A stretch of DNA of 64,000 nt. Source: Thermoplasmatota archaeon (GTDB taxonomy: Archaea > Thermoplasmatota > Poseidoniia > Poseidoniales > Poseidoniaceae). The translations under genes were made by a program, and so were the position numbers. Shown here one piece after another: positions 19,601 through 43,700 of this stretch (position 1 is its first letter; each line of letters opens with the position of its first letter). The notes below the pieces were generated by a model. That model did no database searches. It worked only from the letters and a program-made list of their open reading frames with translations, and had not been told where the DNA came from. Location of the stretch: NCBI GenBank assembly GCA_036019775.1, contig JAYXXD010000001.1, positions 3,202 to 67,201 of the forward strand, written 5' to 3'.

Positions 19601-22600
19601 GTGACGTCGATTTTAAAATCAAAAAAAGCAGTTCTGATATCGTTGTTACTCATCATACCACTGGTACTTGCTCCACAATCACTAGCGAACAATACAACCG
19701 AAGTAAACACGTTCACAGGAGGCGCCCAATCTCTAACAATACAGTCCGATGGCTCAAATACATCGAACGATTTACAACTTGAGTTAACGAGAAATGTTAC
19801 CTACCAAGACGCATCGTTTATTGTAAAATTTGAAAATCCTTCTCAGAGTCCAGGTAGTGTATTCGTCAACAATAGTTTCGGTGATAAGATTTGGGAGTTT
19901 AGCTCTCCTGAGTATGGGGGCCTTGGTTCTCAAAACTCATTCGAATCTGGATATACCTACGATATAGCTATGTTGAATAACAACTCAACAATTTCTACTC
20001 CGATTTTACTACCAACGAATGCAGGACTCCAATCCAGTTCTGTCAATGTGACGTTTACACCACAAATAGACGGACATTATGTTCCCGTAGGATCTGTAAC
20101 ACAGATGGAACTTGGTAATTCAAACAACGACAATATGTCTGACGCATTTGTTCTTTCAACAGATAACTCAACTACTGGCGTAAACACAGGATTTGCCGTG
20201 ATTGAAAGTAGCAACACAAATCACAATTACTCGCTTACGAACTGGACGCCTACTTGCTCGACTTCTGAAGTTATGCGAATTGCTGATTTGAATAACGATT
20301 CGTATGATGATGTCGTAACGTTTCAAATAATGAACAATACGATATGCATCCATTATTACAACCCAACCAACTTAACTTATGACCCTGAAATTCTTGTTAA
20401 TTTAACAACTGATCCAATGGACCTTCAAATTGCAGATTTAAATTTAGACGGAAAACCAGACCTTGTGAGCATCCATGGGCCAGCACAAAACGGCAGCGTA
20501 TCGTTATCGCTGCAAATTACTTCCTCAATGTTTGTCGAAGCGTCGAATTTACCGATTTATGAGTGGAATTCGAACCAAAACCGAGCTAATATGCGTTCCC
20601 TGAAGGTTGGAAACTTCTTTTCCCCTCTTCAAAATCAAACCTATTTGTTGGTAATAGATGACAATGATGATGCAACATTGGTCTATTATGATAGTCAATC
20701 TAAGGCCCTTATGAGCAACATGACGCAATACAGGAACATGAGTTCCGAATCTGTAGGGGGCGATATTGATGCGGATGGAGATATTGATTTTATTTCTCCT
20801 TACATGAGTGAATCGAGCATACATCTGAACAACGGGACCGGTTGGATTGAAACGAAAAGTAATCAGGTTATCGAAACTAGAAATGCGACAATTGCAGATC
20901 ACAATAACGATGGTATTGCCTCACTTTTCTTCCCGAATCCAATGGTAAGTGACGGTAATCCGGCTACGATTGAAGGGGTTATCCAGTTCAATGATTTCCA
21001 CAACTCAGGTATTCTCGCTACGAACCCAAGTCCGTTGCAACCATATTCCCAGCCATCCGACGTCTTGTTCTCTGATCTCAACAATGACAAAGTCATGGAA
21101 CAGTTTGTACTTGCAGGCGAGAGCTCTCAAGGCGTCTTCATAGGAGCGTGGCATAATCTCTCAATCGATGCAGATCTTGACGGTAGCAATGACTTGTCGG
21201 TGGAAGGGTACTCGAGCTCAACAATACAACACCTTGGGGTATTGACACTTTCAGATTCTAATGATTTAATTAAAACATCATTCGAGTATTCTCTTCCTCC
21301 TAATCCGAGTATAACCGATGGATACGATATAGAAATGCAAGGTTATTCCATCATGTTGTCAAGCAATTCAATTGGAATCGCAAATGTTTCAGATTTGGAG
21401 ATAAATTATGATATCGAATTTTTAGTAACCAACAATCCTGGATTAGTTGGCTCGTTAACCAATTCTCTAAATTTAGAGATGGAAGCGGGTATTGGCCAAT
21501 TTAACGTCACTTTACCTGTGGAAACAAGCCAACCCGGCTCCTTCGAAGTCGTGGATTTGAGTTTAATCTCTACCCCTGGCGCACCGAACATAACTCTACC
21601 CCCCGATCCAGCGCTAACAAGCACTGTAACTCTGGATAATGTAAAAATTGAATGGCAACCAATTTCTGAGTTTGGGCCAAATTTAGTTGAGTTCCTGATT
21701 TACAAATCCACCTCAGTAGAATCAATTGACTATTCGACTCCTGAAGAAATTGTTGTTAATCAAAATTATTTTGTTGACGAATCCATATCACCAGGATCAA
21801 CGTACGTTTACGTCTTACGCTCAATCCATCTTTATGGCGTAGCTAGTAATTTCTCGTCACCAATTGAAGTCTATGTGCCCTATCCATCGCCTCCAACTCC
21901 AGTTACAAATGTACAATTAATCGATCTTGACCTATCTACTCAATCCTCTCCTCTGAAAGTTTCATGGGAAGAAAACACTGATCTGCATTTGGTTTCAGAA
22001 TACAAAATCTATGTTGCAAAATCGAGTTTTTCTCCGTTAAATTCCGAATCCGAAATCCTAGCTACTGAAAATTACACAATCGATGGCGTTTCGTTCCAAC
22101 CAGTTGCTACAGTCCCAAGTTCAGTTTTGGAATATGAAATCGATCAAACGAGTTCTAAATTGAGCGAGGGAGTAGTCTTACCGTCTGAACCAATTCAGGA
22201 TGGAATACAATATTGGGTCGCAGTCGCAGCGGTGGACGGTTATGGAAATGCTACCGGCCCCTTGCCTTTTGCTGGGCCAACAACTCCATTCAATAATACG
22301 TACATCAATAGTCAGTTGGAAATTATAATTGAATCAGGGCCTGCAGAATCAGAAAATCACATTCTTGAGTCAACCAGTCCAATGAAAATTACTCTACATG
22401 CATACTATTTGGATGGCAACGGCGCAATTACAGCAATTGAAAATGCTGACCTTGAACTTAACTTGACCTATGGCGAGGAACAATATCTGCTCAGTGGAGA
22501 AAGTGATTCATCGGGGCAATGGATTGCCATCGATGTGGAAAACTTACACGATTCGGCGATTCCACAAAGCTTACTCAATTTCTCAACTAATCTGACCGGT

Positions 22601-23743
22601 ATAGTAAACATTCAGGCTTCTATGAATGCGATTGAGATTATCGATACCCAACCCTATGCTTCTGTGAATGCGGTTGAATCAATCTCCACCGGGATGTTTG
22701 TTGAACTTGTTGGTCCACAATCTCCGGTCGATGTTGATGCAAATGCAGCAATTGACGTTAACATATCGTTGAACGCCCTCGACTCTTCCAGTCCCGCTCA
22801 TCAGGCTTCACTTGAAGGAACAACAATTTCATGGAAGGCGTTCAACAATAATTCACAAGAACCATTGTCAACAGGCTCAGAAACAATAGATTCAGGAAAA
22901 ATTCGAATTGCATCCACATTTGAAGACATTAGCCGAATTGAATTTTCAGTCGATTCTGAGCAACGAATTTTCTTTGGTACGACTGAAATAACCCTCATAC
23001 TTAATCCATATTCTGTTCCAAATCAGAACAATGAAACGAATCAAAACGAAACGGAATGGGTTCCTACGAGCATACAGCCTGTTGAAATCGAATGCGAGGT
23101 GCCAACGTTGCTTACGAATCAACCATCCTCAGATGACCCAATCGAATGCAATATTAAAAACCCGAATCCGTTTTCAGTCAAGGTTGAAATTTTCGTAAAG
23201 GAATCTCCGCCGTTGTTTAAGTCGCCTGGCGTTGTGACAATCGAAGCAAATGGAACAGTTCCGGTATCGTTCGATCCAAAATACGACGAACCGCTCTGGG
23301 ACCGTCAAGATGATGCAAACGTTGAGAAAGAATTCACCATTCGAACACTCACAAGTGCAACGGTTTATGAGTTGAGCGTATCCAAGGAAGATATCGTTGT
23401 TTGGATAGCAGATATTTTTGTAACGACTGAACCGACTTCAGATGGAGAAGAACAAAGCTCTTCAGATGCAGTTCTATGGGGAGGAATTGGAGCAGGGGCA
23501 ATCATTCTTCTGATTGTCGGACTTGTTCTTTACCGTCGTGCATCTGCAGATTTTGAGGATGAATCCTTCTATCAAGAAGATGAAATTATGCTTGAAGAAA
23601 ATGATGAACCCGTTGAAATACCAACAGGAAAACCGCTCGATGAATTTGAAGACGTGGTTATTTCAGAACAACCAGAAAAGAAAGAACGTCCAAGCGATTC
23701 TCTTATTTCAGAGGTCGAGAACTTGGGAGACGAAATCATTTAA
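19601..23743 (+). CDS. Giant (1380 aa) secreted surface protein: FG-GAP/VCBS-like beta-propeller repeats, FN3/Ig-like domains, C-terminal TM anchor and acidic cytoplasmic tail
   Basis: GTG start with a GAGGGGG SD-like motif 9 nt upstream; signal peptide; FG-GAP-type repeats IADLNNDSYDDVV, IADLNLDGKPDLV, GGDIDADGDIDFI, ATIADHNNDGIASL, LFSDLNNDKVMEQ; TM GIGAGAIILLIVGLVLY; tail E/D-rich. Confidence 0.8.
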   Translation: MTSILKSKKAVLISLLLIIPLVLAPQSLANNTTEVNTFTGGAQSLTIQSDGSNTSNDLQLELTRNVTYQDASFIVKFENPSQSPGSVFVNNSFGDKIWEFSSPEYGGLGSQNSFESGYTYDIAMLNNNSTISTPILLPTNAGLQSSSVNVTFTPQIDGHYVPVGSVTQMELGNSNNDNMSDAFVLSTDNSTTGVNTGFAVIESSNTNHNYSLTNWTPTCSTSEVMRIADLNNDSYDDVVTFQIMNNTICIHYYNPTNLTYDPEILVNLTTDPMDLQIADLNLDGKPDLVSIHGPAQNGSVSLSLQITSSMFVEASNLPIYEWNSNQNRANMRSLKVGNFFSPLQNQTYLLVIDDNDDATLVYYDSQSKALMSNMTQYRNMSSESVGGDIDADGDIDFISPYMSESSIHLNNGTGWIETKSNQVIETRNATIADHNNDGIASLFFPNPMVSDGNPATIEGVIQFNDFHNSGILATNPSPLQPYSQPSDVLFSDLNNDKVMEQFVLAGESSQGVFIGAWHNLSIDADLDGSNDLSVEGYSSSTIQHLGVLTLSDSNDLIKTSFEYSLPPNPSITDGYDIEMQGYSIMLSSNSIGIANVSDLEINYDIEFLVTNNPGLVGSLTNSLNLEMEAGIGQFNVTLPVETSQPGSFEVVDLSLISTPGAPNITLPPDPALTSTVTLDNVKIEWQPISEFGPNLVEFLIYKSTSVESIDYSTPEEIVVNQNYFVDESISPGSTYVYVLRSIHLYGVASNFSSPIEVYVPYPSPPTPVTNVQLIDLDLSTQSSPLKVSWEENTDLHLVSEYKIYVAKSSFSPLNSESEILATENYTIDGVSFQPVATVPSSVLEYEIDQTSSKLSEGVVLPSEPIQDGIQYWVAVAAVDGYGNATGPLPFAGPTTPFNNTYINSQLEIIIESGPAESENHILESTSPMKITLHAYYLDGNGAITAIENADLELNLTYGEEQYLLSGESDSSGQWIAIDVENLHDSAIPQSLLNFSTNLTGIVNIQASMNAIEIIDTQPYASVNAVESISTGMFVELVGPQSPVDVDANAAIDVNISLNALDSSSPAHQASLEGTTISWKAFNNNSQEPLSTGSETIDSGKIRIASTFEDISRIEFSVDSEQRIFFGTTEITLILNPYSVPNQNNETNQNETEWVPTSIQPVEIECEVPTLLTNQPSSDDPIECNIKNPNPFSVKVEIFVKESPPLFKSPGVVTIEANGTVPVSFDPKYDEPLWDRQDDANVEKEFTIRTLTSATVYELSVSKEDIVVWIADIFVTTEPTSDGEEQSSSDAVLWGGIGAGAIILLIVGLVLYRRASADFEDESFYQEDEIMLEENDEPVEIPTGKPLDEFEDVVISEQPEKKERPSDSLISEVENLGDEII

Positions 23744-23935
23744 TAATATCCTGGAGAGGAAGATCCTGAAAACGATGACGACATCTCAGTGGATGAATTT
23801 GGAACGGAATGGTATGAAGATGAAGTTGGGACTTGGTGGTTCCGCGAAGCCGGAGAACAAGACTGGTCCGAATACAATGAATGATCGCCGAGATATTTTT
23901 CAAACACTATACGACCAGCGATATGGGGTGTGAGC

Positions 23936-24685
23936 ATGAAGCAACAATTCGAGACGTATGACCTCGTTCTTCGTTCGGGAGTTGACCCGGCCACGAGTGG
24001 TGTCGCAATATGTGGATTCACCACAGCTGGAATGGTGGGAGTTATTGCGACATCCCACATCATCGAATCGCTCAATCTCACGCAGCTTGGAACAGTCATG
24101 GATGAGAATTTTCCAGCAGTTGCTTTAATTCAGAATGAAATTCCTCGCCACCCGGTCCGTGTCTATCAGGGTGATGGTATTGGTGTTTTTACCGCAGAAA
24201 TTCAATTTGATAAAGAACAAGATATCGCTTTTGGCTCAACAGTCCTCGAATGGTTCAATGCAGGCGGTTTCGATCAATTGATAATTATCGATGGTATTCT
24301 GAAGCCAGAAAAACAGATTCAGGGTGAAGGCTTGTTTGCTGTCGGAGCCAATGATGTTGCACGTGCTCGCCTAAAATCCCTCGATTTGCAAACGATTCAA
24401 CGAGGGGTTGTTTCAGGAATTACAGGATTTTTGCTGAGTGAAGGCGATCGCCTCAATCTCGACATCACCGCTTTACTCTCTGAGGCGAGCCCGATGTATC
24501 CGGATGTTCGAGCGGCTGCTGTTGCTATCGAAGCAATCACAGAGATGACGGGCAAAGAAATTCCACTCTCAAAGATGCTCGAAAATGCCCGTAGTATCGA
24601 GCAATCGGTTCAAGAAATCATTGAAAGCGCTACGCCGCTTTTGCCCTCGCCAGATGAAGATTTAAACGACCCATCATTCGGTTGA
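23936..24685 (+). CDS. PAC2-family protein (second paralogue)
   Basis: GVAICGFTTAGMVGVIATSHIIESL pattern parallels the 6950-7771 protein; ATG at 23936 after GTG 23930. Confidence 0.7.
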   Translation: MKQQFETYDLVLRSGVDPATSGVAICGFTTAGMVGVIATSHIIESLNLTQLGTVMDENFPAVALIQNEIPRHPVRVYQGDGIGVFTAEIQFDKEQDIAFGSTVLEWFNAGGFDQLIIIDGILKPEKQIQGEGLFAVGANDVARARLKSLDLQTIQRGVVSGITGFLLSEGDRLNLDITALLSEASPMYPDVRAAAVAIEAITEMTGKEIPLSKMLENARSIEQSVQEIIESATPLLPSPDEDLNDPSFG

Positions 24686-27882: not shown

Positions 27883-29997
27883 ATGATTCAAGACTTTGAT
27901 TTAACAGCACGATGGTCAACGCTCCTTCATGCACATTTCACTGAGGATGTCCACAACATTGCTCAACTTTGGCCAGATGTTCAAAGTCTTGAAGTTTCAT
28001 ATCGAACCATAGAAGGGTTCGACCCTACATTTGCTCAGAGCATCTTGGAACAACCCGATCTTCACGGCGACGCATCGAACCGAGCATTGCGGGAACTACT
28101 TGCTGACGTTGGTTATGGAACCATCAACCCGTGGGTACGTATTGTCCATCTCCCCAGCGACCAAGTACGCACTGTCTCACAACTTCGCTCAGATGATATT
28201 GGTCTGATGATTTCGATTGATGCGGTGGTCACAAAAATTTCAGGTGTTCGTCCAAGAATGTATTCTGCTACATTCAAGTGCGTTGCTTGTGAGCACCTAA
28301 CTACGATTCAGCAACCAAATGAACAGGAATTAATCAATCCGATGGAATGTTCGCAAATCGATGGCGGATGCGGTTTGACAAATCGCCAAACACGATTCCA
28401 ATTGCTGCAAGAACGTTCAACGTTAACGAACTCTCAGTTTATTGAACTTCAAGAGCTACCCGAACAGGTCCGTGGAGGAGTTCAACCCGAACGTATCTCC
28501 TGCATCGCAGAACACGACCTCACCGGAAAAGTCAATCCAGGCGACCGAGTCAAAGCAAACGGCGTCTTGTTCATCCGTTCACAACGAAAGTTTGGCAAAG
28601 ATACTCCAGTGTTTGACATTTTCATGCGTGTTCAGTCTCTTGAACGACAGAACCTCGCTCTCGAAGAAATTGTTGTAAGCGATGAGGAAGAAGCAGAGAT
28701 TCGAGCATTTGCTGCCAATCAAGATGTGTACAAGCGCATCTCTGAATCCATAGCACCATCGATTTTTGGTATGGATAAAATCAAAGAAACTTTGATGTTA
28801 CAATTGTTTGGAGGCGTTGCACGCCTCAACCCCGATGGGACAAGAAACCGTGGAGATATTCACATTCTCCTTATGGGCGATCCCGGTGTTGCAAAATCAC
28901 AACTTCTTGCCTACATGGGGAACATTTCACCTCGTGGTCGATTCACTTCTGGTATGTCTGCCTCCGCTGCTGGTTTAACTGCAGCTGCTGTGCAAGATGC
29001 AAGTGCTGATGGTCGATGGACTTTGGAAGCGGGGGCTCTTGTTCTTGCAGACCAAGGCCTTGCTGCGATTGACGAATTCGACAAGATGAACCAAGCCGAC
29101 AGATCGAGCATGCACGAGGCAATGGAGCAGCAGACTATTTCGATTTCAAAAGCAGGAATCAATGCTAGTCTTCGGACTCGTTGTGCGGTTTTGGCTGCTG
29201 CTAACCCGAAGGCAGGTCGATTCCAACCCGTTTCGGAGGTTCCATTCACTGGACAAATCAATCTCGCTCCACCGCTCATTTCACGTTTCGATGTCATTTG
29301 GCTGTTGACCGACGAGCCTTCGGAAGATAAGGATGCCAAGATTGCTGGACATATTGTCGACAATCGGTTGTCTGGAACGAGTGAATTACTGGTGAATGAA
29401 GGGTCAAGGCCCGACCCTAGAAAGCTGAGTTCTGTAATGACAAAACCAAGCCATACCGACGGGCACCTCCACAGAGAGTTCATCCGAAAGTACGTTGCTT
29501 ATGCAAAGAGAACCGTTCATCCAAATCTAAACGAAGAGGCAAAAAAACACATCATCAGTTATTACGTTACAACACGAAAGCAATCAGGTGAGTTCCAAGA
29601 TTCAGTTGCAATCACAGCACGTGCTCTTGAGGCGCTCGCCCGCCTTGCCGAGGCTAGTGCCCGAATTCGCTTGTCGGAAATTGCGACGATTGAGGATGCC
29701 GAGCGAGCAGTTCGTTTGACCAAGACTTGGAGATACGATCTCATGGGTGAGAACTTCGATGAGACTGCCATTGCCTCGAATCAGAAAGGGAAGGCTCGGC
29801 ATGCGGAACGAACAATTCTCGACATCGTGGACCGTTTGTCCTCCAATGGTGAAGGATTCGCACAACTCGTCGATGTTCTCAATGAGGCAGAGCGCCTTGA
29901 TATCACTCGAGATAAAGCAGAAGAAGTCATTGATAAACTCAATCAAAATGGTCGATTGATGCGTCCAACGGGTTACGATACACTTCAAATTGTTTAG
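27883..29997 (+). CDS. mcm: MCM replicative helicase
   Basis: Walker A ILLMGDPGVAKSQLL, Walker B/arginine finger AAIDEFDKM...SRFD; N-terminal zinc motif CVACEH...C..C; 704 aa, no intein. Confidence 0.9.
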   Translation: MIQDFDLTARWSTLLHAHFTEDVHNIAQLWPDVQSLEVSYRTIEGFDPTFAQSILEQPDLHGDASNRALRELLADVGYGTINPWVRIVHLPSDQVRTVSQLRSDDIGLMISIDAVVTKISGVRPRMYSATFKCVACEHLTTIQQPNEQELINPMECSQIDGGCGLTNRQTRFQLLQERSTLTNSQFIELQELPEQVRGGVQPERISCIAEHDLTGKVNPGDRVKANGVLFIRSQRKFGKDTPVFDIFMRVQSLERQNLALEEIVVSDEEEAEIRAFAANQDVYKRISESIAPSIFGMDKIKETLMLQLFGGVARLNPDGTRNRGDIHILLMGDPGVAKSQLLAYMGNISPRGRFTSGMSASAAGLTAAAVQDASADGRWTLEAGALVLADQGLAAIDEFDKMNQADRSSMHEAMEQQTISISKAGINASLRTRCAVLAAANPKAGRFQPVSEVPFTGQINLAPPLISRFDVIWLLTDEPSEDKDAKIAGHIVDNRLSGTSELLVNEGSRPDPRKLSSVMTKPSHTDGHLHREFIRKYVAYAKRTVHPNLNEEAKKHIISYYVTTRKQSGEFQDSVAITARALEALARLAEASARIRLSEIATIEDAERAVRLTKTWRYDLMGENFDETAIASNQKGKARHAERTILDIVDRLSSNGEGFAQLVDVLNEAERLDITRDKAEEVIDKLNQNGRLMRPTGYDTLQIV

Positions 29998-30041
29998 ATG
30001 TGAAGCAATCATCTCTTGAAGGGGAAATGTGTGGGAAGCCC

Positions 30042-32069
30042 ATGGCAGGTGATGGTCATCAGGAACCTGAAGGTGATGTCACTGATGCCTCAACCTTCGA
30101 TACAGAACAATTAGGATTCATGTGTGGTATCGAAGTCCACCAGCAACTTGCCACTGGAAAACTCCATTCGCGTCAACCGTCAATGCTCTTTGATGTGACC
30201 ATCGATACCGTTCCAAGCGACTGGCCACGTTACGCTCGAAAACTTCGATTGGCCAGTGGAGAAGGTGGTAAAGTCGATGTTGCAGCTCGTTTTGAGAAGC
30301 GACGAAACCGTTCCTTTGTTTACATACAGTCGCCCAATTCGGGACTGATTGAGTTGGATGAAAGTCCACCGCTTTCGCATGATTCTGAGGCTCTCGATGT
30401 GGCGCTCACAGTCTCAGCGATGCTTGGAGCAAAACCGGTTGGAGCGGTTCAAACGATGAGAAAGACGGTCGTAGATGGTTCGAACACAAGTGGCTTCCAA
30501 CGCACTTCTCTGATTTCAACCGATGGCACACTCAAGACTGATACAGGCGATGTTGGCATCGATGTTCTCTGCTTGGAAGAAGACAGTGCACGCAAACTTG
30601 ACACCATCCCTACAGATCACGGTGAACAAGTCATCTACAATCTCGATCGTCTCGGCGTACCGTTGATTGAGATTGCAACATCACCAGATATTCAAACTCC
30701 AGAACATGCCAAAGAGACGGCTATGGCTCTCGGCCGAACACTTCGAGACACCCGGCGTGTCCGTCGTGGTCTCGGTTCCATTCGCCAAGATTTGAACGTC
30801 AGTGTCGCTTGTGGCGATCGCGTGGAAATCAAAGGCTGTCAAGACCTTGGATGGATTCCGCGAATCGTTCGATTGGAGATGGTTCGACAGGTCCACATGT
30901 ATCGTCTTGCCAACGAACTCCGTTCGTCTCTTGGATTGCCACAACTTCCACCAAATCGTGATTTAGATGATTCTGACATGGAATCTGACGTCGTGGAAGC
31001 AGTTGCCAAACACATTCCCTTGGAGTATACAGATGTTACAGCCGCATTTACATCCTGTGAAAGCAGAATGGTTACTGAGGGTCTTACTGAGGGATACACA
31101 ATGCTGGCGCTTCCATTGAAAGGATTTGCTGGGAAGATCGGTTCGAAAATCCTAGACGTTGATGGAGCACAACTCCCTCGTTTGGGACGAGAATTAGCAG
31201 GAGCAGCGAAACTAGCTGGCGTTCGTGGTGTTTTCCACTCAGACGAACTTCCCGCCTATGGCATTGAAGAAGAGCATGTAGAATCAGTTCGAAAGCAACT
31301 TGAACTTAAATCAAATGATGCGTTTGTCCTCTGTCTCGCACCATCGTGGCAAGCACGTCTTGCACTCGAATCGGTTGGTCGTCGAGCAAGACTTGCTTTT
31401 CATCGCATCCCTCAAGAGGTCCGAAACGTCGTTGTCAAGAAAGGGGCTCCAGAAGACGGAACAACCACGCCAATGCGCCCTCTTCCAGGTGGTGCGCGAA
31501 TGTACCCTGAAACGGATGTTCCAACCATTTCTATCGACAGCGGGCATTGGCGACGTATTTCCGAGAATTTACCGATGCGGCAAGATGAACGAAAGCAACG
31601 CCTTGCTCAGACGGATCTCTCCGAAGATCAATCCAAGCAACTTCTATCACGTGAATTGGATGATGCTTTCTTTGATTATCATGAATCCAAGAGCAAGGCT
31701 TGGGGAACTTTACTCCTCGAACATGAAACCGTTCACCCCTCGGTCCTTTCTCAAATTCTTTCGGTTCGCGAGTCAGGAGGTTTAACTCGAGAGGGGATTG
31801 AGCAGGTAGTCGAACAATTTGCTCATGTCAAGCACGTCTCGGTACAAGAAATCGAAGCCTTTGCCGATGAAAACGACCTTGTTCCTGCTGATGTGGGCAA
31901 TTTAGAATCAATTGTCGAAGGTATCGTTCTAGAACGTATTGATTTCGTTAAAGAACGAGGAATGGGCGCAATGGGACCTCTCATGGGTGTTGTCATGGGG
32001 GCCTGTCCTGGAGTTGATGGGAAAGAGGTTAGCTCAGTACTTCGGACAATGATTCAGAGGCATTCATGA
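30042..32069 (+). CDS. gatE: Glutamyl-tRNA(Gln) amidotransferase subunit E (GatE)
   Basis: GFMCGIEVHQQLATGKLHS N-terminal signature and GatB/E-like C-terminal domain; ATG 30042 chosen over GTG 30000; TAG-ATG-GTG junction with mcm. Confidence 0.85.
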   Translation: MAGDGHQEPEGDVTDASTFDTEQLGFMCGIEVHQQLATGKLHSRQPSMLFDVTIDTVPSDWPRYARKLRLASGEGGKVDVAARFEKRRNRSFVYIQSPNSGLIELDESPPLSHDSEALDVALTVSAMLGAKPVGAVQTMRKTVVDGSNTSGFQRTSLISTDGTLKTDTGDVGIDVLCLEEDSARKLDTIPTDHGEQVIYNLDRLGVPLIEIATSPDIQTPEHAKETAMALGRTLRDTRRVRRGLGSIRQDLNVSVACGDRVEIKGCQDLGWIPRIVRLEMVRQVHMYRLANELRSSLGLPQLPPNRDLDDSDMESDVVEAVAKHIPLEYTDVTAAFTSCESRMVTEGLTEGYTMLALPLKGFAGKIGSKILDVDGAQLPRLGRELAGAAKLAGVRGVFHSDELPAYGIEEEHVESVRKQLELKSNDAFVLCLAPSWQARLALESVGRRARLAFHRIPQEVRNVVVKKGAPEDGTTTPMRPLPGGARMYPETDVPTISIDSGHWRRISENLPMRQDERKQRLAQTDLSEDQSKQLLSRELDDAFFDYHESKSKAWGTLLLEHETVHPSVLSQILSVRESGGLTREGIEQVVEQFAHVKHVSVQEIEAFADENDLVPADVGNLESIVEGIVLERIDFVKERGMGAMGPLMGVVMGACPGVDGKEVSSVLRTMIQRHS

Positions 32070-33688
32070 TGCGTATTGCGGCAACCCTTGTTCTTGTATT
32101 ACTCATCTTGCCTATGGTCCAAGCCTCTTCTGAATCATCATGGACGCATGAGTTTGAATCGGGCTACATATCAACTCAACCCATTGTAGTGGATGACACT
32201 GTTTTCGTACGAACCTCAGGATTCTGGACCGGCGAAGAGCGTCCAATTGTTGCAGCATTTGAATTAGAATCTGGAAATGAGATATGGAACTATTCGTCAC
32301 AAACATCACTTCAGCATGACATGACGCCCCTCATGTTTGTAGAGGGAGGTTCAGGAGCCTGTGGCGAATGGGGGTCTCTCCTCTTGGTTGGTTGGGCGGA
32401 TGGAAGAATCACTGCACACTCTCCAACAAATGGCTCAATTGTTTGGCAAAATCAAACCGAAGTCGAACTTATTGGTATCACTGGAAAGATGGCATTGGAA
32501 GGAGACAGAGTCATCGTCCCAACACGGACAGGCCTCTCGAGTTTTTGTCTTGAAGATGGTTTTGAACTGATGGATATTGATACTGGGAACGTTGGTTGGA
32601 GAAATGGTGTAACAATCACCGAGAGTGGGTATGTGTATGGGGATGAATTTGGTTATCTTCACGAGATTGATCGAGATGGAACGATTTCAAGCATATTCCT
32701 TGGTGAAGGAAAAATAAGACATGCTCCATTGGATACTCGACATGGTTTGTTTGTTCATCTTCAAACGTCTCAAGGTTCAACAATGTATCTGAATGGTTCA
32801 GTCATAGCAAATGTGGGAGCATCTCCAGCAATGCCGTTAATACACAACAATCGCATTTATGTTGCAACCAGTAATGAATGGATGTCTCTTCTCTGCGACG
32901 AACAATCATGTACAATCGATTCAATTGAACCGTTTTCGTCGAATGGCGAATTGGCCTTACGAATCATTGATTCCGATGTTGAAATTTGGGCCCCATCCAA
33001 TACCCCTAATGGCGGCTGGGGCGTCTTTAACGAAACATCATTGATCCGAACGGAAACGACCTTCTTTGATACGTATGGGACTGCTGCACCAGGATTCGGC
33101 CAAGGAGTAGTCGTGTTGGGCAATGACGCGGGGATTCTCTCCGTAAGTTATCAAATTCCGAACGAGTCATCACCAGAAGATTCTCAAATCGACATTGCTG
33201 GGATACTACATTACCTGTTTATTCTCGTGTTCTTTGTCCTCACCTGCTCTTATTTTGCTTTACACGATTGGCAACAGTTTGCCAAGATTGGATCTGCTTT
33301 TCTTCTCATCTTGGCTATCGCAATCGTTCCAGAACTATCGGTGAAACTCGCAGAACAAACAGCACTCGAACAGGATGTGGAATGGGATAGTTCGTGGCCA
33401 GATGAATGGAAAGGGACACAAGTCATCGTGTTCGAAATTGATGGAGAGGAGCATGTTATAGGTGGCCTGGAAACACAAAATACGGTATTGGATCTAACGG
33501 TTCTAGCTTGTGATTATTTAGGAATTTCAAATGAAATTGAGCAACAGTATCTTGGCGCCTATCTTGTTTCGTTCAATGGAAGCATGGGTGATGGTTGGGA
33601 GTTCACCGTCGATGGTAATCGGGTCCCAGTGGGAATGACTGAAGCTGAACTCAACGATGACTCAATCGTCGAATGGCGACCAGTTTGA
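32066..33688 (+). CDS. Secreted PQQ-like beta-propeller protein with 2 TM segments and a C-terminal DUF4430-like (transcobalamin-like) domain
   Basis: Signal peptide; propeller repeats; TM ILHYLFILVFFVLTCSYFAL / SAFLLILAIAIV; C-terminal GDGWEFTVDGNRVPVGMTEAELNDDSIVEWRP matches the W.Y.VNG.....GA..Y.L.DGD.I.W hallmark of DUF4430. Confidence 0.6.
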   Translation: MMRIAATLVLVLLILPMVQASSESSWTHEFESGYISTQPIVVDDTVFVRTSGFWTGEERPIVAAFELESGNEIWNYSSQTSLQHDMTPLMFVEGGSGACGEWGSLLLVGWADGRITAHSPTNGSIVWQNQTEVELIGITGKMALEGDRVIVPTRTGLSSFCLEDGFELMDIDTGNVGWRNGVTITESGYVYGDEFGYLHEIDRDGTISSIFLGEGKIRHAPLDTRHGLFVHLQTSQGSTMYLNGSVIANVGASPAMPLIHNNRIYVATSNEWMSLLCDEQSCTIDSIEPFSSNGELALRIIDSDVEIWAPSNTPNGGWGVFNETSLIRTETTFFDTYGTAAPGFGQGVVVLGNDAGILSVSYQIPNESSPEDSQIDIAGILHYLFILVFFVLTCSYFALHDWQQFAKIGSAFLLILAIAIVPELSVKLAEQTALEQDVEWDSSWPDEWKGTQVIVFEIDGEEHVIGGLETQNTVLDLTVLACDYLGISNEIEQQYLGAYLVSFNGSMGDGWEFTVDGNRVPVGMTEAELNDDSIVEWRPV

Positions 33689-34386
33689 GCGGTAACACTC
33701 AAGGCTCACCGCTAAGTGGGCAGGTTATGTTGAGCGCAATAGGCACCCATGGGCCTGCTGTCTCACCGATTGCGATGGGAATGTTGAATGCAGCATTCTT
33801 CGCAATCGCAGTTTGGTTGTTGGTGAAACCACAACAGAAATCTGAAACATGGATGTGGCCACTTTTTCTTTTTGTCGGACTTGCTTCAATCTCTCGGATT
33901 GCGTTGAGTTTTATTCCAAATGTTATGCCTGTCACCATCATGGCAGTTCTTGTCGGTTCCAAGTTTGGTGTTCAACGCGGTGTTTCTTTTGCAATACTCG
34001 TTACCCTAATGAGCAATGCAGTGCTTGGGCATGGATGGTGGAGTTTCTTCCAAATAATTGGTTGGGGTTCAGTTGCAGCCATGGCATCGATGATGAGCGT
34101 CCACGACGCTGAAGGAAGACTTTCGATGAATCGACTCGCTTTCGCATCGTTATGGAGCGTTCCAATCTTCAGCATCATCGTTTCTATTTCGATTATTGAT
34201 TCGGGCATGTCGGTGATTGAATTCGGTCTTTACATCGCCAATGGATTGCTTTACGATTTACTTCATTTCCTCGGTAACGTCTTCTTTGCCATGTGGTTTG
34301 GGCAATGGTTTGAACGCCTACTTTCAATGAACCAACCACAAAACCATCTCACCCAACAGGAGAAGGAGCATGTCAGCACTATCTGA
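33673..34386 (+). CDS. Polytopic membrane protein, possible ECF-transporter S component
   Basis: ~6 TM, ~200-230 aa, 16-nt overlap with upstream gene; assignment by size, topology and context only. Confidence 0.4.
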   Translation: MATSLSGNTQGSPLSGQVMLSAIGTHGPAVSPIAMGMLNAAFFAIAVWLLVKPQQKSETWMWPLFLFVGLASISRIALSFIPNVMPVTIMAVLVGSKFGVQRGVSFAILVTLMSNAVLGHGWWSFFQIIGWGSVAAMASMMSVHDAEGRLSMNRLAFASLWSVPIFSIIVSISIIDSGMSVIEFGLYIANGLLYDLLHFLGNVFFAMWFGQWFERLLSMNQPQNHLTQQEKEHVSTI

Positions 34387-34741
34387 TCCACCCACGATGG
34401 CATTCCTTTGTCGAGCGGATCTCCAACTTTCATCTGGGAAACTTGCCGTCCAATGTGCACATGCTGCCGTAGGTTCCCTACAGCTGGCGAAGAAAACGCA
34501 CTCAAGAATGGTTCAACGTTGGACAGAATCTTCCTCGCGAAAAGTATGTCTTTCGGTCGAAGATGAAGAAGAGTTGGAGTACTATCTTGAACGTGTACAA
34601 GAAGCATCCCTTCCTTTTGCACTCATCAAAGATGCTGGATTAACCGAAGTCGCTCCCGGAACAGTAACCGTGCTTGGTGTAGGCCCTGGGCCGCGTCATA
34701 CTATGGATTCTTTGTTTAGCAATCTCAGGGCATATGAATGA
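34370..34741 (+). CDS. Peptidyl-tRNA hydrolase Pth2-family paralogue (divergent)
   Basis: LSSGKLAVQCAHAAVGS vs canonical MGKGKxAAQVxHAA; GGAGAAGGAG SD-like motif upstream; non-canonical C-terminus. Confidence 0.7.
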   Translation: MSALSDPPTMAFLCRADLQLSSGKLAVQCAHAAVGSLQLAKKTHSRMVQRWTESSSRKVCLSVEDEEELEYYLERVQEASLPFALIKDAGLTEVAPGTVTVLGVGPGPRHTMDSLFSNLRAYE

Positions 34742-34750
34742 GGTCATACA

Positions 34751-35170
34751 ATGGGTTTTCGAAGTTTTCTTCATCGTATAACAGCTCCAAAATTTGAGCG
34801 TTATGTCCACCGTAATCAATCACTAAAAATGGTGTTCATTATCAATCATGAATTGAAAATGGGGAAGGGGAAAGTTGCTGCACAGGTCGGTCATGCTGCC
34901 GTTAAAGCGACACTCAAATCGGGTGAACTTCATCCAGAACTTCTCGATGCATGGCTTTCAACAGGACAGAAGAAAATATGCCTAAAAGCAGATAATGCAC
35001 ATCATATTGAACAGATTGAAAGACAATCAAAAGAACTTAAAATTCTAACGTCAAAAATACATGATGCTGGCCACACACAGATTCCAGCAGGCTCTCTAAC
35101 AGTCCTTGCTTTGGGGCCAGATGAAGATGAGAAACTGAATCTTTTGACGGGAGAATTGAAACTTCTCTAA
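34751..35170 (+). CDS. pth2: Peptidyl-tRNA hydrolase Pth2 (canonical archaeal type)
   Basis: [17 protein letters not shown]...ICLKADN...[15 protein letters not shown]...TGELKLL. Confidence 0.8.
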
Positions 35171-35208: not shown

Positions 35209-36255
35209 ATGCGAGAGATTAGTTCCAATCGAATTGACTTGCGTTCAGATACGGTCACCCAACCAACTATTCCTATGCGCGAGGCCATGGCTAAAGCAGA
35301 AGTTGGGGACGACGTTCTCGGTGATGATCCTACCGTTCAACAACTCGAATCCATGGTTGCCGAATTGTGCGGAAAGGATGCAGGTTTGTTCGTACCATCA
35401 GGAACCATGTCGAATGCTGTTGCGCTCAAAACACATACCGTGCCAGGAGACGAGATTGTCACCGAGCGTTACAGTCACATCTACCTCTATGAGGGAGGCG
35501 GGTATGCTGCACTTTGTGGCTCAAGCATCGCTCTCCCTGAAGGACAAAATGGACTCTTGACACCAGATCTTGTTGAACAATCCATCCGAAAGCAGAGAGG
35601 TTCACAATCACATTATCCAGATGGTAGTCTTGTTTGTGTCGAAAACACGGCAAATCGAGGCGGGGGGACGTGCTATGAACAGACTGTTCTCGATGAAATA
35701 GCAGAAATATCCAAAGCGAAAAATTGCGGAACACACATTGATGGGGCTCGTATTTTCAACGCCTCAGTTGCTACTAAAACTCCACTCCATAGAATGACTC
35801 GTGATTATGATTCAGTCTCAATATGTCTTTCGAAAGGCCTTGGTGCACCTGTAGGTTCAGTCCTTGTTGGTTCCGAAGAATTCATCGAAGAAGCGCACCG
35901 ATGGCGGAAAATGTTTGGTGGGGGTATGCGCCAATCTGGAATCCTTGCAGCAGCAGGAATTTATGCACTTGAGAACAATATCCAGCGAATGGAGGAAGAC
36001 CATCGCCGCGCAAGAACAATTGCAAAAGCCATTGATGAAATGGATCATGTCTCAGTCGATTTCGACGCAGTTCAAACCAATATGGTATACTTTTCAGCAG
36101 CAGAGTATTCAGCAGCAGAAGTTTCTCAAAAGATGGCCCAATCAGGTATTGATATGTTTGACATTTCACCAACACATTGTCGAATTGTAACGCATCTACA
36201 TATTTCTGATGACGATGTACAGCATGTGATAGAAGCGCTATCATCCCTCAGTTGA
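35209..36255 (+). CDS. ltaE: Low-specificity L-threonine aldolase (PLP-dependent)
   Basis: [12 protein letters not shown]...MSNAVALK (PLP lysine region)...; 348 aa; AGGTGGA SD-like upstream. Confidence 0.8.
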
Positions 36256-36287
36256 AACTTTTTAACACCTCGACTGACAAAACTCCC

Positions 36288-38513
36288 ATGATTGGGGAAG
36301 CCTGTGGCATCTGCCAAAACGAATTGAATGAAACGAATTGCTCGATTTGCATCCGCTGTGTTGAAATCACAGAGGAGAGTAAATGGGCTCCATCTCTTTC
36401 ACCAGAAGTTCACCAACGAATGGTCGATGTCTTGGGGGGGCCAGCTCGATCCTTGCGACAACGATGGGAAAATCTTCAACGATTTATGGATCACACTCCC
36501 GATGTTGATTGGGCGCGACTGAGCAATCCTGAGCTCGATCCTGTCCGATATTCTCCTTTCCCAGAGGAAGAAGAACGTATCTTTGTTGAAAAACTCGAGA
36601 AGCTGAGTGGTTATTCTGGTTTTGAAAAAGAACGATTGGAGGAAGGATTTGTCATGTGGGACGGAACGCATCTTTCTTTCATCGATGGAAAGATGTGGAT
36701 TGACGGCCGTTCCCATGAGGCTAGAATACCAACAGAGCAGTACCTTCTTCTTTTGACAAATTCAGAACAACGTAAAGGGTGGGATCTCATCAAGATTTTC
36801 CTTGCCGTAAGTGGATTGTACCAAACGATTGACTTGAATGGCAGACCTCAGCGGTATATGTATCGATTTCAAAGACTTCTTGGTCAGACTCAGCGAGAAA
36901 TACTCACACCGTTTGATACATTTGTACAATCCTCATTTCTCCTGGATCAAAACGAACGAAGAAAAAAGAAAACGAACGATTTTGCAGAAGGAAGCTGGTC
37001 GTACGATCTGATGAATCGGTTGTCAGGCCGTCGTCCTCGACAGAGACTGAAGTTTGCACGACGTTTTATTCGAACTCAAGAGAATAGGAATCTTCCTGCA
37101 TCAAAATTACCCTGGGTTCAACGTTGGGAACAAATGGTGACGAATGTTGAACTGTCCAATGTTCGTTATCCATTTATGGTGAATTCTAAAGGTATACTTT
37201 GCCTTCGAACATTGACAAAAAATGGAAGTGTTCGAATGGCACCTATTCCATTTTTACCAGGGCTTTTAGCAGGCCTCATTTCGTGGGGTTCTTCCCCTCA
37301 TGCATCGAGAGAAGGAGAGTGGTTAGTAGCGACACAAATGAATTGGACGGCACCATACAACAATGCAGAAACTGCTGATGAGCCATTTCGTCGGTCCATG
37401 CAATTTTTACGCGGAGTCCTCAAACAATTCCCTGAAGATACTTGGGTTCATCGAGATCGGTTACTCGTGCGAGGGATGCTCGGACATTTCTATGAGATTC
37501 GGATTGCACGAGGGTCACATAACGCTCCATTCAAGATCCATGGTGTTGGAAAGAAAACAACACAACGACATTCAATCTGTATCCATACTGGAAAATATCA
37601 TCGCGATATCCCAATTGGGGATACAATCGCTATCGTTGTGCTTTCTCTTCTTTCTGATGTAACAACTGCAGAACGAGTGAATAGTTTACAGATGCATCTC
37701 ATGACGCAGCCACCAATCGGCTTTCCACAAAAAGAGGCAGGCATGAACCCACAAACGTTCTATCAATCAAATGGCAATAAGTTCCATTTCCCTCTCCACC
37801 CGTTCTTATTTCGAGAAAATGAAGAAAGAGAACTCATTGACCTCGATTCTCTGGAATTGATGAATGATAAAGCCATTTTTGATGACTGGAAATTGAGACC
37901 ACTCCGTGAAAAGCAATTTGATCAGCCGGGGCACCTCAACCCTGATCTTGATTTCGATGATGAGGACAGAATTTTGGAAGGACATTTCTTTGAGTATCGG
38001 CGCCAAAGACCAATTTTTCAGAACATTCAACCAAACATCATCGACGTTCAAAATCCTCCCTTTCAATTTGAGGATGAGAGGCAACAACCTCGCGACGATC
38101 AATTTCATCGATGGTATCGTACGATGCCATTGGTTTGGGAAGCACTCTCCTTGCAACCTATTGGTCACCAAGTAGAGTTAGGTGGAGTGCGTGGATTGTT
38201 TCGGATGCAGGGATGTCGGTTGCGAATGACCATCCGTTCAGCACAAGAAGAGGATGCTGTTCAGCGTATTCTTGAAATCTTAGGTTACAGGCATGCTCGA
38301 TATCGTCAGTTGAATCAGGTCTACATAAGAAGGGATTTTCCAATCGCAGATCCGAGACATGCATTGCGAGAACTCATGGAACCTCTCACTGAAGAATTTG
38401 GTTTTGCAAATATTGACGACTATGTTTTGCGCTTTATTGAAGTCGGTCGTCCACCAGATCGCATGCCAGAAGTTGATGCACGCCTCCATGCGAATATGGT
38501 TGATTTCTACTGA
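36288..38513 (+). CDS. Large hypothetical protein with N-terminal treble-clef-like zinc finger (CGICQ..x9..CSICIRC)
   Basis: ATG 36288 after TTG 36252; ~740 aa; no recognisable catalytic motif. Confidence 0.5.
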   Translation: MIGEACGICQNELNETNCSICIRCVEITEESKWAPSLSPEVHQRMVDVLGGPARSLRQRWENLQRFMDHTPDVDWARLSNPELDPVRYSPFPEEEERIFVEKLEKLSGYSGFEKERLEEGFVMWDGTHLSFIDGKMWIDGRSHEARIPTEQYLLLLTNSEQRKGWDLIKIFLAVSGLYQTIDLNGRPQRYMYRFQRLLGQTQREILTPFDTFVQSSFLLDQNERRKKKTNDFAEGSWSYDLMNRLSGRRPRQRLKFARRFIRTQENRNLPASKLPWVQRWEQMVTNVELSNVRYPFMVNSKGILCLRTLTKNGSVRMAPIPFLPGLLAGLISWGSSPHASREGEWLVATQMNWTAPYNNAETADEPFRRSMQFLRGVLKQFPEDTWVHRDRLLVRGMLGHFYEIRIARGSHNAPFKIHGVGKKTTQRHSICIHTGKYHRDIPIGDTIAIVVLSLLSDVTTAERVNSLQMHLMTQPPIGFPQKEAGMNPQTFYQSNGNKFHFPLHPFLFRENEERELIDLDSLELMNDKAIFDDWKLRPLREKQFDQPGHLNPDLDFDDEDRILEGHFFEYRRQRPIFQNIQPNIIDVQNPPFQFEDERQQPRDDQFHRWYRTMPLVWEALSLQPIGHQVELGGVRGLFRMQGCRLRMTIRSAQEEDAVQRILEILGYRHARYRQLNQVYIRRDFPIADPRHALRELMEPLTEEFGFANIDDYVLRFIEVGRPPDRMPEVDARLHANMVDFY

Positions 38514-40776: not shown

Positions 40777-43700
40777 TTGCTTTTATACCGTCGTCTTCTA
40801 TGTTACGAAGCGGGGGATATTTTAGTGAACATCACGTTTGAAGCATGTCCTCCAGAGAACATCGTCCCCTCATGGTTAATTGCTAATATTGCAAGCGGAC
40901 GAGACGATATACTCGTGATTTATCCGAATGAAAGTACGCGTTCAAACTCGATTCAATCCATACTCCAAAAAACAGGGACAGTTGATTCGAGTAGACACAC
41001 AACTCTCCAGCGACTTACCAAAGCGTTAGCAATTGATTTTCGCCTCCCAGTTCTGATCCCTAAATCATCAATTGGTCTTGTTCAAGTTCATGAAAAGCTG
41101 GTCACAGAGGCGTTGAATCATCGCTTCCCTCGTCTTCATCCAGACCCGACTCGGCCTTGGACGATTTCAAAATCTGAGAGGTTACTCAAACTTCATTCGT
41201 ATGCCACCAATCATCGTATTCTTTCGAAATGGGAGGAAGATCCAGGTGCTCGTGAGGCAGAACGTATTCTTTCCACATTCAGAAAAAACGACCTTCTCCA
41301 TGAACATCATGTCTTAGATCGACTTTCTAGAGATTTATTGGATGCAGAAATCTTAGGACCGTATACAATTAGTACAATCAAAGGCATTGTGTTGTTGAAC
41401 CACCCTCCAGACTTCACTGAAACCGAGAAGCGATTTTTCAAAGCATTGTCAACACGATGCCCAATTCACCATGTATGCGTTACAGGTTCCTTCCGTCTTG
41501 GATACCATGGGGCTTACATTGATGATGAAATCAAGGCCATTGAGGATATAGCAGACTTGCCTTCGTGGGTACCACAACATCAGATTTACACTTCAAAACA
41601 AAATGATTACGCGACAAATGGCGTTCATGTACTCAGCTTTGATCAAGCCACATTGGTGATGGATGCAGCGATTTCAGCTCTACAACTATACAAGAGTCAC
41701 ACGGGAGGGCGCGTTTTACTCGTGGACGCAAATAGACATAGGCATATTGAATGGGTTCGTCGATTGAATCGAATCGGAATAACATGTAATATTCATCGCG
41801 ATGTAGTAGGGAGCACATCGGCTGTTCAAGCGATTCTTCGATTCCTGTCGATTTCGAATGGCCAAGATGCTTGGTCTGCAACGAAGTTGTTCGACATCAT
41901 TCAATCACAGGCATTCCCGATGCTGGAGAACCTTTTTTCAGAACTTGAACACCCAATAAACAAAGATTGGCGACCTAGACCTCATTTGGATGTGATTGAA
42001 AATCTTGGACGAAGTTTTCATGTTCTTGGTGGAAAAGGAGCCCTTCAACGTTGGCTAGGTTCACTATCTGTCGCAAAACCCTATTCAACGGAAGCCTTTC
42101 GCCAAGAACAAGAGTTGCGGAAACTTGAGGAGACACAATGGTGGTTCCAATGTCTTGCAGTTTCTTGGTCAGCACTCCTGAGCGAACAAGAACGGAAGAC
42201 CCTCACAACTGAATTGATTGGAACATCAACTAAAACATCACTTCCTTTGCCGCAACCGAGTAAGTCGCCTAGAGATATTCTTTCATTGATGCTTTCATCT
42301 TGCGACTGGGAGCGCTTGTTTAGGCGGACTCAAAGATATGATGCCTCAGTAGGCGCAATCCAAGTTTGGGTCCAAACCATCGATGCGATGCTTCAGTATG
42401 AAACGAGCATCGATTTTGTTGACCTTTGCCGCCTTGCCTCTGAAGAAACCGAAATACCTGCTCATCGGATTGAACACCCCGACGTACTCGTTCGCACTCC
42501 TCTTCAGGCATACGGAGTCGAAGCAGATATCACAATGTTCGTCGGTCTTGATGCCGAATCGTGGTCGATGAAAGCAGAGCGAATTCCTTGGATTGATGAT
42601 TCAGTTCGAATTCAGCTAGGCTTGACTGATGGTGATCTCCCCATCCGTCGTGCCCGCCATGTGTTCAAATCATTACTTAATTCCAGCCAACAGGCGATAC
42701 TTTTTGAAACGGAACATGATGAATCAACAGGAAATTCGACACCAATTGCTGAGTATCTTTCAAAAATAGAATTGGATGGTAAATTGACAGCATTGAGACA
42801 ACCTCCGGCCTTTATTCAGCCATCAATATCTGATGGCGCAGGATGGACAACGATAACAAGAGATGACGGAAATGTCGTTACTTATCGAAGGTCAGCATTA
42901 TCCATCAACGGAAGAGAGGTATCCCTCGATTACGCGGAAAATACTCTTCGAAATAACAAACAAAAGGCAGGCCTTGAACTCAAAGCACACCGCCAACCAA
43001 TTTCAGATGTCCAATCACCGAATTCAATTGCTGCACGTTATGAGCGAGAAATTCATCTCGATCGATTTCGCCGCCAACCAAAATTCGAATCCATAGAGAA
43101 TGGAAGTTTCATGAATTGGTCGATAAGAAACAACCTGCTGACGACGACGAATATCATCATTCAGCCTACCGTTTCTCAAGCAAAGATTGCCGGGGGCAGG
43201 ACAACTAATCTCTACCCACACCTTGGTTACAAAAGGAATAGAATTTCAAGTGGCCCTTCTATCGATCCACGGCCACTTCCACCTCCACAATTCGATTCTG
43301 TGAGTTTGAATGCAATCCTTACAACTCAGACTAGAGAAAACAAATTGAGAATTTGGTCAACGAGTCGATTGAATCCTTGGTTTATTTGTCCTCGCCAAGC
43401 ATGGGCTGAGCAAACGTTGCAAGTTACCGAATCTTCTCCAGAACTTTCTGAAGATATTGCGCCTTTGACGAAAGGAACGTTGGTTCATTCCATTGAGGAA
43501 CATCTAATGACGATGCTTGGAATTGAGGTTGGTGGTCTACCGCTTTCAGCAGGTGTGCCATTGCACCTTGGCGTTCCGCTTTCTGAACAAGAAATATGGG
43601 AAAGTGTACTTGGCCGACTATCTGAACTCGCTCCGTGGCTTTCAAGGACCAATGCTGTTTCTGTACATCGTTGTAACGATCTAATTGGATGCACTCCAGA

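Follow-up and report, generated by a model that had tools for sequence, protein, structure and literature searches.

A propeller-bearing DUF4430 surface protein and a CbrT-type S-component homologue: a probable corrinoid capture-and-uptake module in Poseidoniales archaea

In a 64,000-nucleotide stretch of DNA from a Thermoplasmatota archaeon of the order Poseidoniales (contig JAYXXD010000001.1; the whole stretch is referred to here as the window), the gene for a 540-residue predicted surface protein (open reading frame A, ORF A) is located directly upstream of the gene for a small membrane protein (ORF B). What are the two proteins for, and do they work together? The evidence presented here indicates that they probably constitute a capture-and-uptake module for corrinoids (vitamin B12 or cobamides), of the type encoded by the bacterial cbrS-cbrT genes. 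It comes from the C-terminal domain of ORF A, from the relationship of ORF B to the substrate-specific components (S-components) of the energy-coupling factor (ECF) transporters, and from the pairing of the two genes. The features of the pair are as follows, with transmembrane abbreviated as TM.

32066..33688, + strand: ORF A, 540-residue surface protein (open reading frame list, Pfam, homologues)
32066..32128, + strand: signal-peptide-like segment, ORF A residues 1–21, MMRIAATLVLVLLILPMVQAS (hydropathy peak of 2.13 over residues 4–22)
32135..33175, + strand: PQQ-like β-propeller, ORF A residues ~24–370, predicted to be extracellular (Pfam PQQ_2)
33194..33343, + strand: two-helix membrane hairpin, ORF A residues 377–399 and 408–426, with the short loop HDWQQFAK (hydropathy peaks of 2.28 and 2.25)
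33344..33685, + strand: DUF4430/transcobalamin-β-like domain, ORF A residues 427–540, folded part ~445–540 (Pfam on the family, AlphaFold2 model, Foldseek)
33727..34386, + strand: ORF B, CbrT-type S-component homologue, 219 residues; the longest reading frame starts at 33673 and has 237 residues (conserved Met, profile match)
33727..33756, + strand: conserved N-terminal peptide of ORF B, MLSAIGTHGP, with a near-invariant His, ahead of the seventh TM helix (alignments)
33844..34287, + strand: six-helix S-component core of ORF B, aligned to CbrT residues 9–157 (HMMER alignment to 6fnp_A)

The C-terminus of ORF A ends with GDGWEFTVDGNRVPVGMTEAELNDDSIVEWRPV, located within the last 114 residues of the protein. 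This is the motif in which an earlier, sequence-only reading of this DNA had recognized the hallmark of DUF4430 (Pfam PF14478, gathering cut-off 23.8 bits), and the family of ORF A as well as its predicted structure support the assignment. PF14478 is matched by 15 of 18 family members (E <= 0.1), with a best E value of 1.2e-5. A 48%-identical relative (P0203) has a precomputed match, and the orthologues in the same genomic slot of two other loci are above the cut-off, with 33 bits in L090 and 30.5 bits in L008. ORF A itself is sub-threshold (see below).

The AlphaFold2 model of the 114 C-terminal residues has a predicted local distance difference test (pLDDT) of 86 and a predicted template-modeling score (pTM) of 0.80. 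When the Protein Data Bank (PDB) is searched with the program Foldseek, the model finds first 3U7Z, a DUF4430 protein from a bacterium (E 9e-6), followed by 17 matches that are without exception β-domains from transcobalamin, intrinsic factor or haptocorrin. The top 19 matches belong to this group throughout and have a probability of 1.00. The template-modeling (TM) scores of the β-domain matches overall are 0.63–0.68, with root-mean-square deviations (rmsd) of 2.5–2.8 Å and ~20% sequence identity. For the transcobalamin β-domain (5no0/5np4), an isolated human domain seen both in the apo state and bound to cyanocobalamin (5np4), the target-normalised TM score is 0.67–0.68 and the rmsd is 2.6 Å. 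The relationship to transcobalamin that had been proposed from sequence is therefore evident in the structural matches. TCN proteins are known to have DUF4430 at their C-terminus (PMC4350170). At the family level, the C-terminal domain of ORF A is a DUF4430/transcobalamin-β-like domain, and by analogy with the vitamin-binding members of this fold it may bind a corrinoid.

The sequence-only reading placed the start of ORF B inside ORF A, with an overlap of 16 nucleotides. However, most homologues of ORF B have 219 residues, the conservation among them begins exactly at Met19 (position 33727), which is invariant, and a 38%-identical orthologue begins 37 nucleotides past the upstream stop codon. 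The true start is therefore probably at 33727, and the overlap is probably an artefact of taking the longest reading frame.

A profile built from 27 homologues of ORF B finds one relevant chain in the PDB, 6fnp_A (182 residues), with an E value of 1.4e-14. The HMMER alignment covers 148 residues, from 40–187 of the query and 9–157 of the chain, and the motifs PNVxPVT, SN..LG.G.W and GL.FD..H..GN are shared. We take the chain to be CbrT because it is unique to entry 6FNP, while the chains of the ECF module recur in other entries. The structure in this entry is that of the vitamin B12 transporter ECF-CbrT from Lactobacillus delbrueckii. CbrT has nM affinity for cobalamin as well as for cobinamide, and both are transported by the whole complex (PMC5997447). 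On profile evidence, ORF B is a homologue of this B12-specific ECF S-component.

The predicted fold of ORF B agrees with this relationship. The AlphaFold2 model has a pLDDT of 75.7 and a pTM of 0.75, and its only credible Foldseek matches are ECF S-components (RibU, ThiT, PanT, FolT, CbiM and 4hzu_S). The probabilities are mostly 0.8–1.0, with 0.51 for PanT (6zg3) and CbiM (5x3x_m), and the best target-normalised TM scores are 0.5–0.66.

The relatives of ORF B also belong to S-component families. A full hidden Markov model search of 1.8 billion representative proteins returned 1149 of them. In a sample of 91, PF12822 (ECF_trnsprt) is matched by 61, PF07155 (the riboflavin S-component family) by 45, and PF20221 (DUF6580) by 30; none of these three models matches ORF B itself. 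The B protein of L090 reaches 42.7 bits with DUF6580 (cut-off 27), and the B orthologue of L008 matches ECF_trnsprt. All the sampled relatives are 30–47% identical to the CbrT fragment, and several homologues carry the JGI label 'ECF transport system substrate-specific component'. A putative ECF S-component had been suggested for this gene, and the searches lead to that family and not to an unrelated one.

The sequence-only reading counted about six TM helices in ORF B. The six-helix S-component core is indeed present, but one extra helix is found N-terminal to it, giving ~7 TM helices in total. In the alignment of homologues, Met19, Ile23, Gly24, Thr25, His26, Gly27 and Pro28 are invariant. 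The N-terminal His is kept in at least 90% of the set with 26–37% identity and recurs in many representatives (P0205–P0241). The archaeal CbrT-like subfamily has the extra helix and, in a short peptide ahead of it, this near-invariant His, 5–8 residues from the Met (MxxxGxHG or MxxxH); the bacterial six-helix CbrT proteins lack the extra helix. Basic residues are found in alternate loops of ORF B, and by the positive-inside rule this pattern fits seven helices with the N-terminus outside and the C-terminus inside. CbiM and NikM are seven-helix S-components as well, and in these a His at the N-terminus extends into the pocket as a ligand of the metal. That the His of ORF B could be a cobalt ligand is speculation from this analogy.

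The remainder of ORF A consists of a signal-like segment, a propeller and a membrane hairpin. Translation may begin at the second ATG (32069) instead of 32066. The N-terminal segment has no lipobox cysteine, and it is predicted to be cleaved as a signal peptide. The propeller that follows is recognized by PQQ_2 (PF13360; PQQ, pyrroloquinoline quinone) in residues 24–191, with an E value of 5.5e-12 and 46.3 bits (cut-off 27.6). Among all the PDB chains with E <= 10 in a profile search, only PQQ-type, BamB and designed propellers are found, the best match being the quinoprotein alcohol dehydrogenase 1kv9 (6e-7). Many Trp, Gly, His, Arg and Asp residues of the propeller are invariant among orthologues, even at 37% identity. 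The score of ORF A is 30.2 bits with the NCBIfam model for PQQ dehydrogenases (TIGR03075, cut-off 480) and 26.1 bits with that for BamB (TIGR03300, cut-off 285), and both identities were rejected. The N-terminal region is the propeller, and Pfam finds no Cobalamin_bind or toroid match in ORF A that would indicate a transcobalamin-type α-domain (α6/α6 barrel).

Two TM helices precede the C-terminal domain, as had been noted before, and are located by hydropathy at residues 377–399 and 408–426. The loop between them contains 1–3 basic residues in orthologues, and the second helix is the counterpart of the single anchor helix in the short forms of L090 and L092 (see below). If the N-terminal signal is functional, it would put the propeller outside. 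The first helix would then lead in and the second out, so that the C-terminal domain would be outside too, and a topology with both domains facing outward is predicted. A surface location would also fit the seven N-X-S/T sequons of ORF A, six of which are inside the propeller region, and its conserved cysteines.

How closely are the two genes tied to each other? When one genome was scanned for each species, 400 relatives were obtained. The best 80 of these were examined, all from Poseidoniales, and a full-length homologue of ORF A is located directly upstream on the same strand in 78 of the 80. By itself, the pairing within Poseidoniales is weak evidence, because the whole block from MCM and GatE to Pth2 is syntenic. 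Since adjacency inside the order is not independent evidence, ORF A might be a surface propeller of unrelated function (a scaffold, an adhesin or an enzyme) that is found beside ORF B through block synteny alone, and its homologues do carry the database names 'PQQ-binding-like beta-propeller' or 'BamB'. We regard this as most improbable. The scores of ORF A are far under the cut-offs for PQQ dehydrogenases and BamB, and DUF4430 and CbrT are also paired where there is no propeller (L090, L092), as well as in a Firmicute with none of this synteny.

In L090 (9416–9973, 185 residues) and L092/L093 (157 residues; 5727–6200 in L092), the slot of ORF A is occupied by short forms, consisting of an N-terminal anchor helix and DUF4430 alone. 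The 157-residue protein of L092 is annotated as DUF4430. A more distant lineage (L094, 5172–7943) keeps the long form, and a gene for a 205-residue, cytoplasmic-looking protein with no Pfam match is inserted between A and B. In the Firmicute (L005/L006), where the neighbours are unrelated, a 126-residue DUF4430 lipoprotein is encoded ahead of the relative most similar to CbrT (47% identity), and the two genes overlap by 14 nucleotides. The cbrS gene of L. delbrueckii presumably encodes a DUF4430 protein as well. The gene order in this organism is nrdJ-cbrS-cbrT-pduO (PMC5997447). Taken together, the short forms, the lineage with the inserted gene and the Firmicute pair indicate that DUF4430 and CbrT are an old two-gene cassette.

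The propeller is a real lineage-specific addition to this cassette, as the slot holds nothing but a short, anchored DUF4430 protein in sister lineages, and the novel propeller fusion anticipated earlier is therefore confirmed. Comparison with the bacterial and the short archaeal forms suggests that the propeller and an extra helix were added N-terminally to an anchored DUF4430 protein. Such an addition would account for the odd hairpin between the two domains that face outward. Alternatively, the short-form lineages may have lost the propeller.

The Poseidoniales synteny of MCM, GatE, A and B is also present on contigs in metagenome-assembled genomes (MAGs) titled Salipiger bermudensis, Rhodobiaceae bacterium and Opitutaceae bacterium (L011, L024 and L027). 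Binning contamination is likely in these three.

Other bacterial relatives of ORF B show a second type of fusion. In 18 of the 91 sampled relatives, which are long and of actinobacterial type, the CbrT-like domain is fused to an α/α toroid resembling prenyltransferases and squalene cyclases. These fusions (P0260–P0348; loci L007 and L010) have 360–770 residues, and one of them also has SLH repeats. One directly follows the C-terminal end of an ABC ATPase. Fragments of Cob_adeno_trans and CbiQ are located upstream of a further bacterial relative, and several begin with apparent ABC ATPase C-termini. The α-domain of transcobalamin is an α6/α6 barrel. By analogy, the toroid fusions may supply the 'other half' of a split transcobalamin-like binder.

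These observations can be combined into a model for the module. ORF A would be exported and anchored by its helical hairpin, with the propeller and the DUF4430 domain facing outward. Fold and family suggest that the DUF4430 domain would capture B12, which is scarce in solution, at the surface of the cell, and the invariant residues of the propeller hint that it may participate in the capture. The conserved pairing suggests that the corrinoid would then be handed to ORF B, which would hold it in a membrane-embedded pocket and carry it across by toppling. The driver would most likely be a shared EcfA/A′/T module with its genes in another part of the genome, the arrangement known from group II ECF transporters.

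For the last step of this model there is an alternative. With the same ligand and the same capture protein, ORF B could be a solitary S-component-like transporter that works without an ECF ATPase, with ORF A providing affinity and directionality. The solitary S-component-like B12 protein BtuM has reportedly been proposed to work without an ECF ATPase module. A Pfam scan of essentially all the larger open reading frames of the window finds no CbiQ/EcfT, no ABC_tran and no B12 enzyme. A motif scan for ABC ATPases over the window and 90 loci gives a single match in Poseidoniales, in L090, and this is a LivM-LivG-LivF-like amino-acid transporter, not an ECF transporter. The window thus has no ABC ATPase or CbiQ-type gene and, the LivGF-like pair of L090 aside, none is found within 10 kb of the pair in the Poseidoniales loci examined. 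Moreover, the extra N-terminal helix and the near-invariant His, as compared to the six-helix CbrT, could reflect a different working mode. However, the genes for group II ECF modules are normally distant from those for the S-components, and their local absence therefore says little on the choice between ECF-driven and solitary transport. In addition, bacterial members of the family adjoin or are fused with ECF ATPase and T genes, and the profile search of the PDB matched CbrT, not BtuM. Solitary transport is therefore rather unlikely in our view.

The ligand can be questioned in a similar manner. The substrate of the pair might not be a corrinoid but, for example, some other cofactor, a tetrapyrrole or a metal ion, with the DUF4430 and CbrT-like folds re-used for its import. 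The similarity to CbrT is only moderate, and no B12 gene is found near the pair. The extra helix and the His of ORF B recall the metal-binding N-terminus of CbiM/NikM, CbiM is among the Foldseek matches (5x3x_m), and 3U7Z was named 'putative metal binding protein' by its depositors. On the other hand, for both proteins the only relatives that have been studied by experiment are cobalamin binders (CbrT for ORF B; the β-domains of transcobalamin, intrinsic factor and haptocorrin for ORF A), and the two families form a cassette beside B12 genes in bacteria. A non-corrinoid ligand is accordingly quite unlikely.

Several further observations weigh against a corrinoid-uptake function. With PF14478, full-length ORF A scores 15.4 bits and its C-terminal domain alone 18.5 bits, both below the cut-off. 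HMMER profiles of the DUF4430 domain, run against the sequences in the PDB, did not reach transcobalamin; the first alignment matched nothing, and a broader one gave only spurious matches, with designed Kelch-like repeat proteins. As the sequence profiles miss the PDB chains, the link to transcobalamin rests on Pfam and structure. ORF B itself has no match in Pfam or NCBIfam, and its pairwise alignment with the CbrT fragment is limited to 37% identity over 62 residues (BLASTP, E 2e-10). The Foldseek E values of its model are weak (0.2–2), 6FNP is absent among the structural matches listed, and the specificity of an S-component cannot be read from its family membership. In terms of genomic context, a Pfam scan of essentially all the larger reading frames of the 64-kb window found no EcfA/EcfT, B12-dependent enzyme or adenosyltransferase, and the Poseidoniales loci examined have none of these less than 10 kb from the pair either. 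The search for ecfA and ecfT that the sequence-only reading had pointed to was thus negative in the window and in the flanks examined. An Rfam scan of the window, L001 and L005 finds no cobalamin riboswitch; its sole match is a T-box that precedes pheS in the Firmicute. Finally, the neighbours are housekeeping genes (MCM, GatE and Pth2), so that the pairing of A and B is the only genomic-context evidence. With these points taken into account, capture and uptake of corrinoids by a cbrS-cbrT-type pair is still the function that we hold to be probable, and the sequence-only reading is largely borne out. It may be added that Marine Group II has been reported to lack B12 synthesis (PMC9296465), so that a need for uptake is plausible, and that our literature searches on Marine Group II together with ECF or B12 transport returned nothing specific.

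A bolder version of the model can also be formulated. The propeller and the DUF4430 domain would jointly clamp the corrinoid, like the α- and β-domains of transcobalamin, and ORF B would be a seven-helix variant of CbrT in which the His ligates the cobalt, possibly independent of ECF, with the whole serving as the main route for B12. We consider this unlikely. If it were true, the clamp would be a convergent, membrane-tethered, propeller-built B12 binder of very high affinity, and the main acquisition route in an archaeal group that ranks among the most abundant of the surface ocean.

The pair is part of a co-directional, tightly packed block that comprises MCM, GatE, ORF A, ORF B, two Pth2 paralogues and a β-eliminating lyase. 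The two upstream genes were identified from the open reading frame list and Pfam.

27883–29997: MCM
30000–32069: GatE

The two tandem Pth2 (peptidyl-tRNA hydrolase) paralogues are at 34370–34741 and 34751–35170 of the window, the first one overlapping the end of ORF B by 17 nucleotides. The duplication is kept in some relatives (L001, L091), and one copy is found in others (L008, L092). Further downstream (36252–38513) is the gene for a 753-residue protein with no Pfam match, the position of which is kept in relatives (809 residues in L001).

Elsewhere in the window (751–2895), this archaeal genome encodes LigA, an NAD-dependent DNA ligase of the bacterial type that has BRCT and HhH domains. 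Two adjacent, very large genes (1239 and 1657 residues; 40777–49466) have PD-(D/E)XK nuclease and UvrD helicase domains, an AddAB-like arrangement that is unusual in archaea. Large predicted surface or secreted proteins with PKD, FG-GAP or EF-hand motifs are encoded at 2953–5463, 10319–11494, 19601–23743 and 54676–56637, and two genes of the PAC2 family (proteasome assembly chaperone-like) are located at 6950–7771 (− strand) and 23930–24685 (+ strand).

Homologues of ORF A with 64–99% identity number more than 120, all from Poseidoniaceae or Thermoplasmatota, and an identical copy of ORF B has been deposited as a hypothetical protein from a Thermoplasmatota MAG. The present assignments would correct both the names 'BamB' and 'PQQ-binding propeller' for ORF A and 'hypothetical protein' for ORF B, and would add archaea to the Firmicutes as carriers of the cbrS-cbrT cassette. 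The archaea of Marine Group II, reported to be auxotrophic for B12 (PMC9296465), rank among the most abundant heterotrophs of the plankton, and seawater contains little dissolved B12. A gene pair that is conserved across the order and tied to the capture and import of B12 would give expression, binding and metatranscriptomic work on the competition of these uncultured archaea for B12 a concrete target. The cbrS-cbrT type of module is known; what is new here is the propeller and the extra helix on the DUF4430 protein, and the seventh helix with its near-invariant His on the transporter. No description of either was found in the searchable literature.

Among the known systems, ORF B is most directly compared with CbrT (6FNP). 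The homology extends over the whole six-helix core, the predicted fold is S-component-like, and a DUF4430 gene is located directly upstream. In comparison, ORF B is archaeal, has an additional N-terminal TM helix with the MxxxGxHG peptide, and has no ECF module located in the window or the flanks; its function is predicted. With CbiM/NikM it shares an extra N-terminal helix and a conserved His near the N-terminus, on the predicted outer side. However, there is no family-level sequence match to these proteins, 5x3x_m is a weak Foldseek match (0.51), and the partner protein suggests a corrinoid rather than a free metal.

ORF A resembles the CbrS-type bacterial DUF4430 lipoproteins, of which 3U7Z from Ruminococcus gnavus has been solved, in domain family, fold, the slot upstream of the S-component gene, and a predicted membrane-tethered, extracellular location. 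The bacterial proteins have ~100–130 residues, consisting of a lipid anchor and the domain, whereas ORF A has 540, with a signal peptide, a ~350-residue propeller and a second TM helix added N-terminally. The domain shares its fold with the β-domains of transcobalamin, intrinsic factor and haptocorrin, and an isolated β-domain binds cyanocobalamin (5np4). Unlike transcobalamin, ORF A has no α-domain. It has the propeller instead, in the same polypeptide, and a membrane hairpin between the propeller and DUF4430.

The closest functional parallel for the propeller is BtuG of Bacteroides, a surface-exposed seven-bladed β-propeller with femtomolar affinity for B12 (PMC6143338). Homology of the ORF A propeller to BtuG was considered and rejected, as no similarity was found and the profile search of the PDB returned only the propeller types named above. 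BtuG supplies a TonB-dependent outer-membrane transporter, whereas the presumed partner of ORF A is an S-component. In both cases a cell-surface propeller would be tied to B12 uptake, and BtuG shows that a propeller can itself bind a corrinoid tightly.

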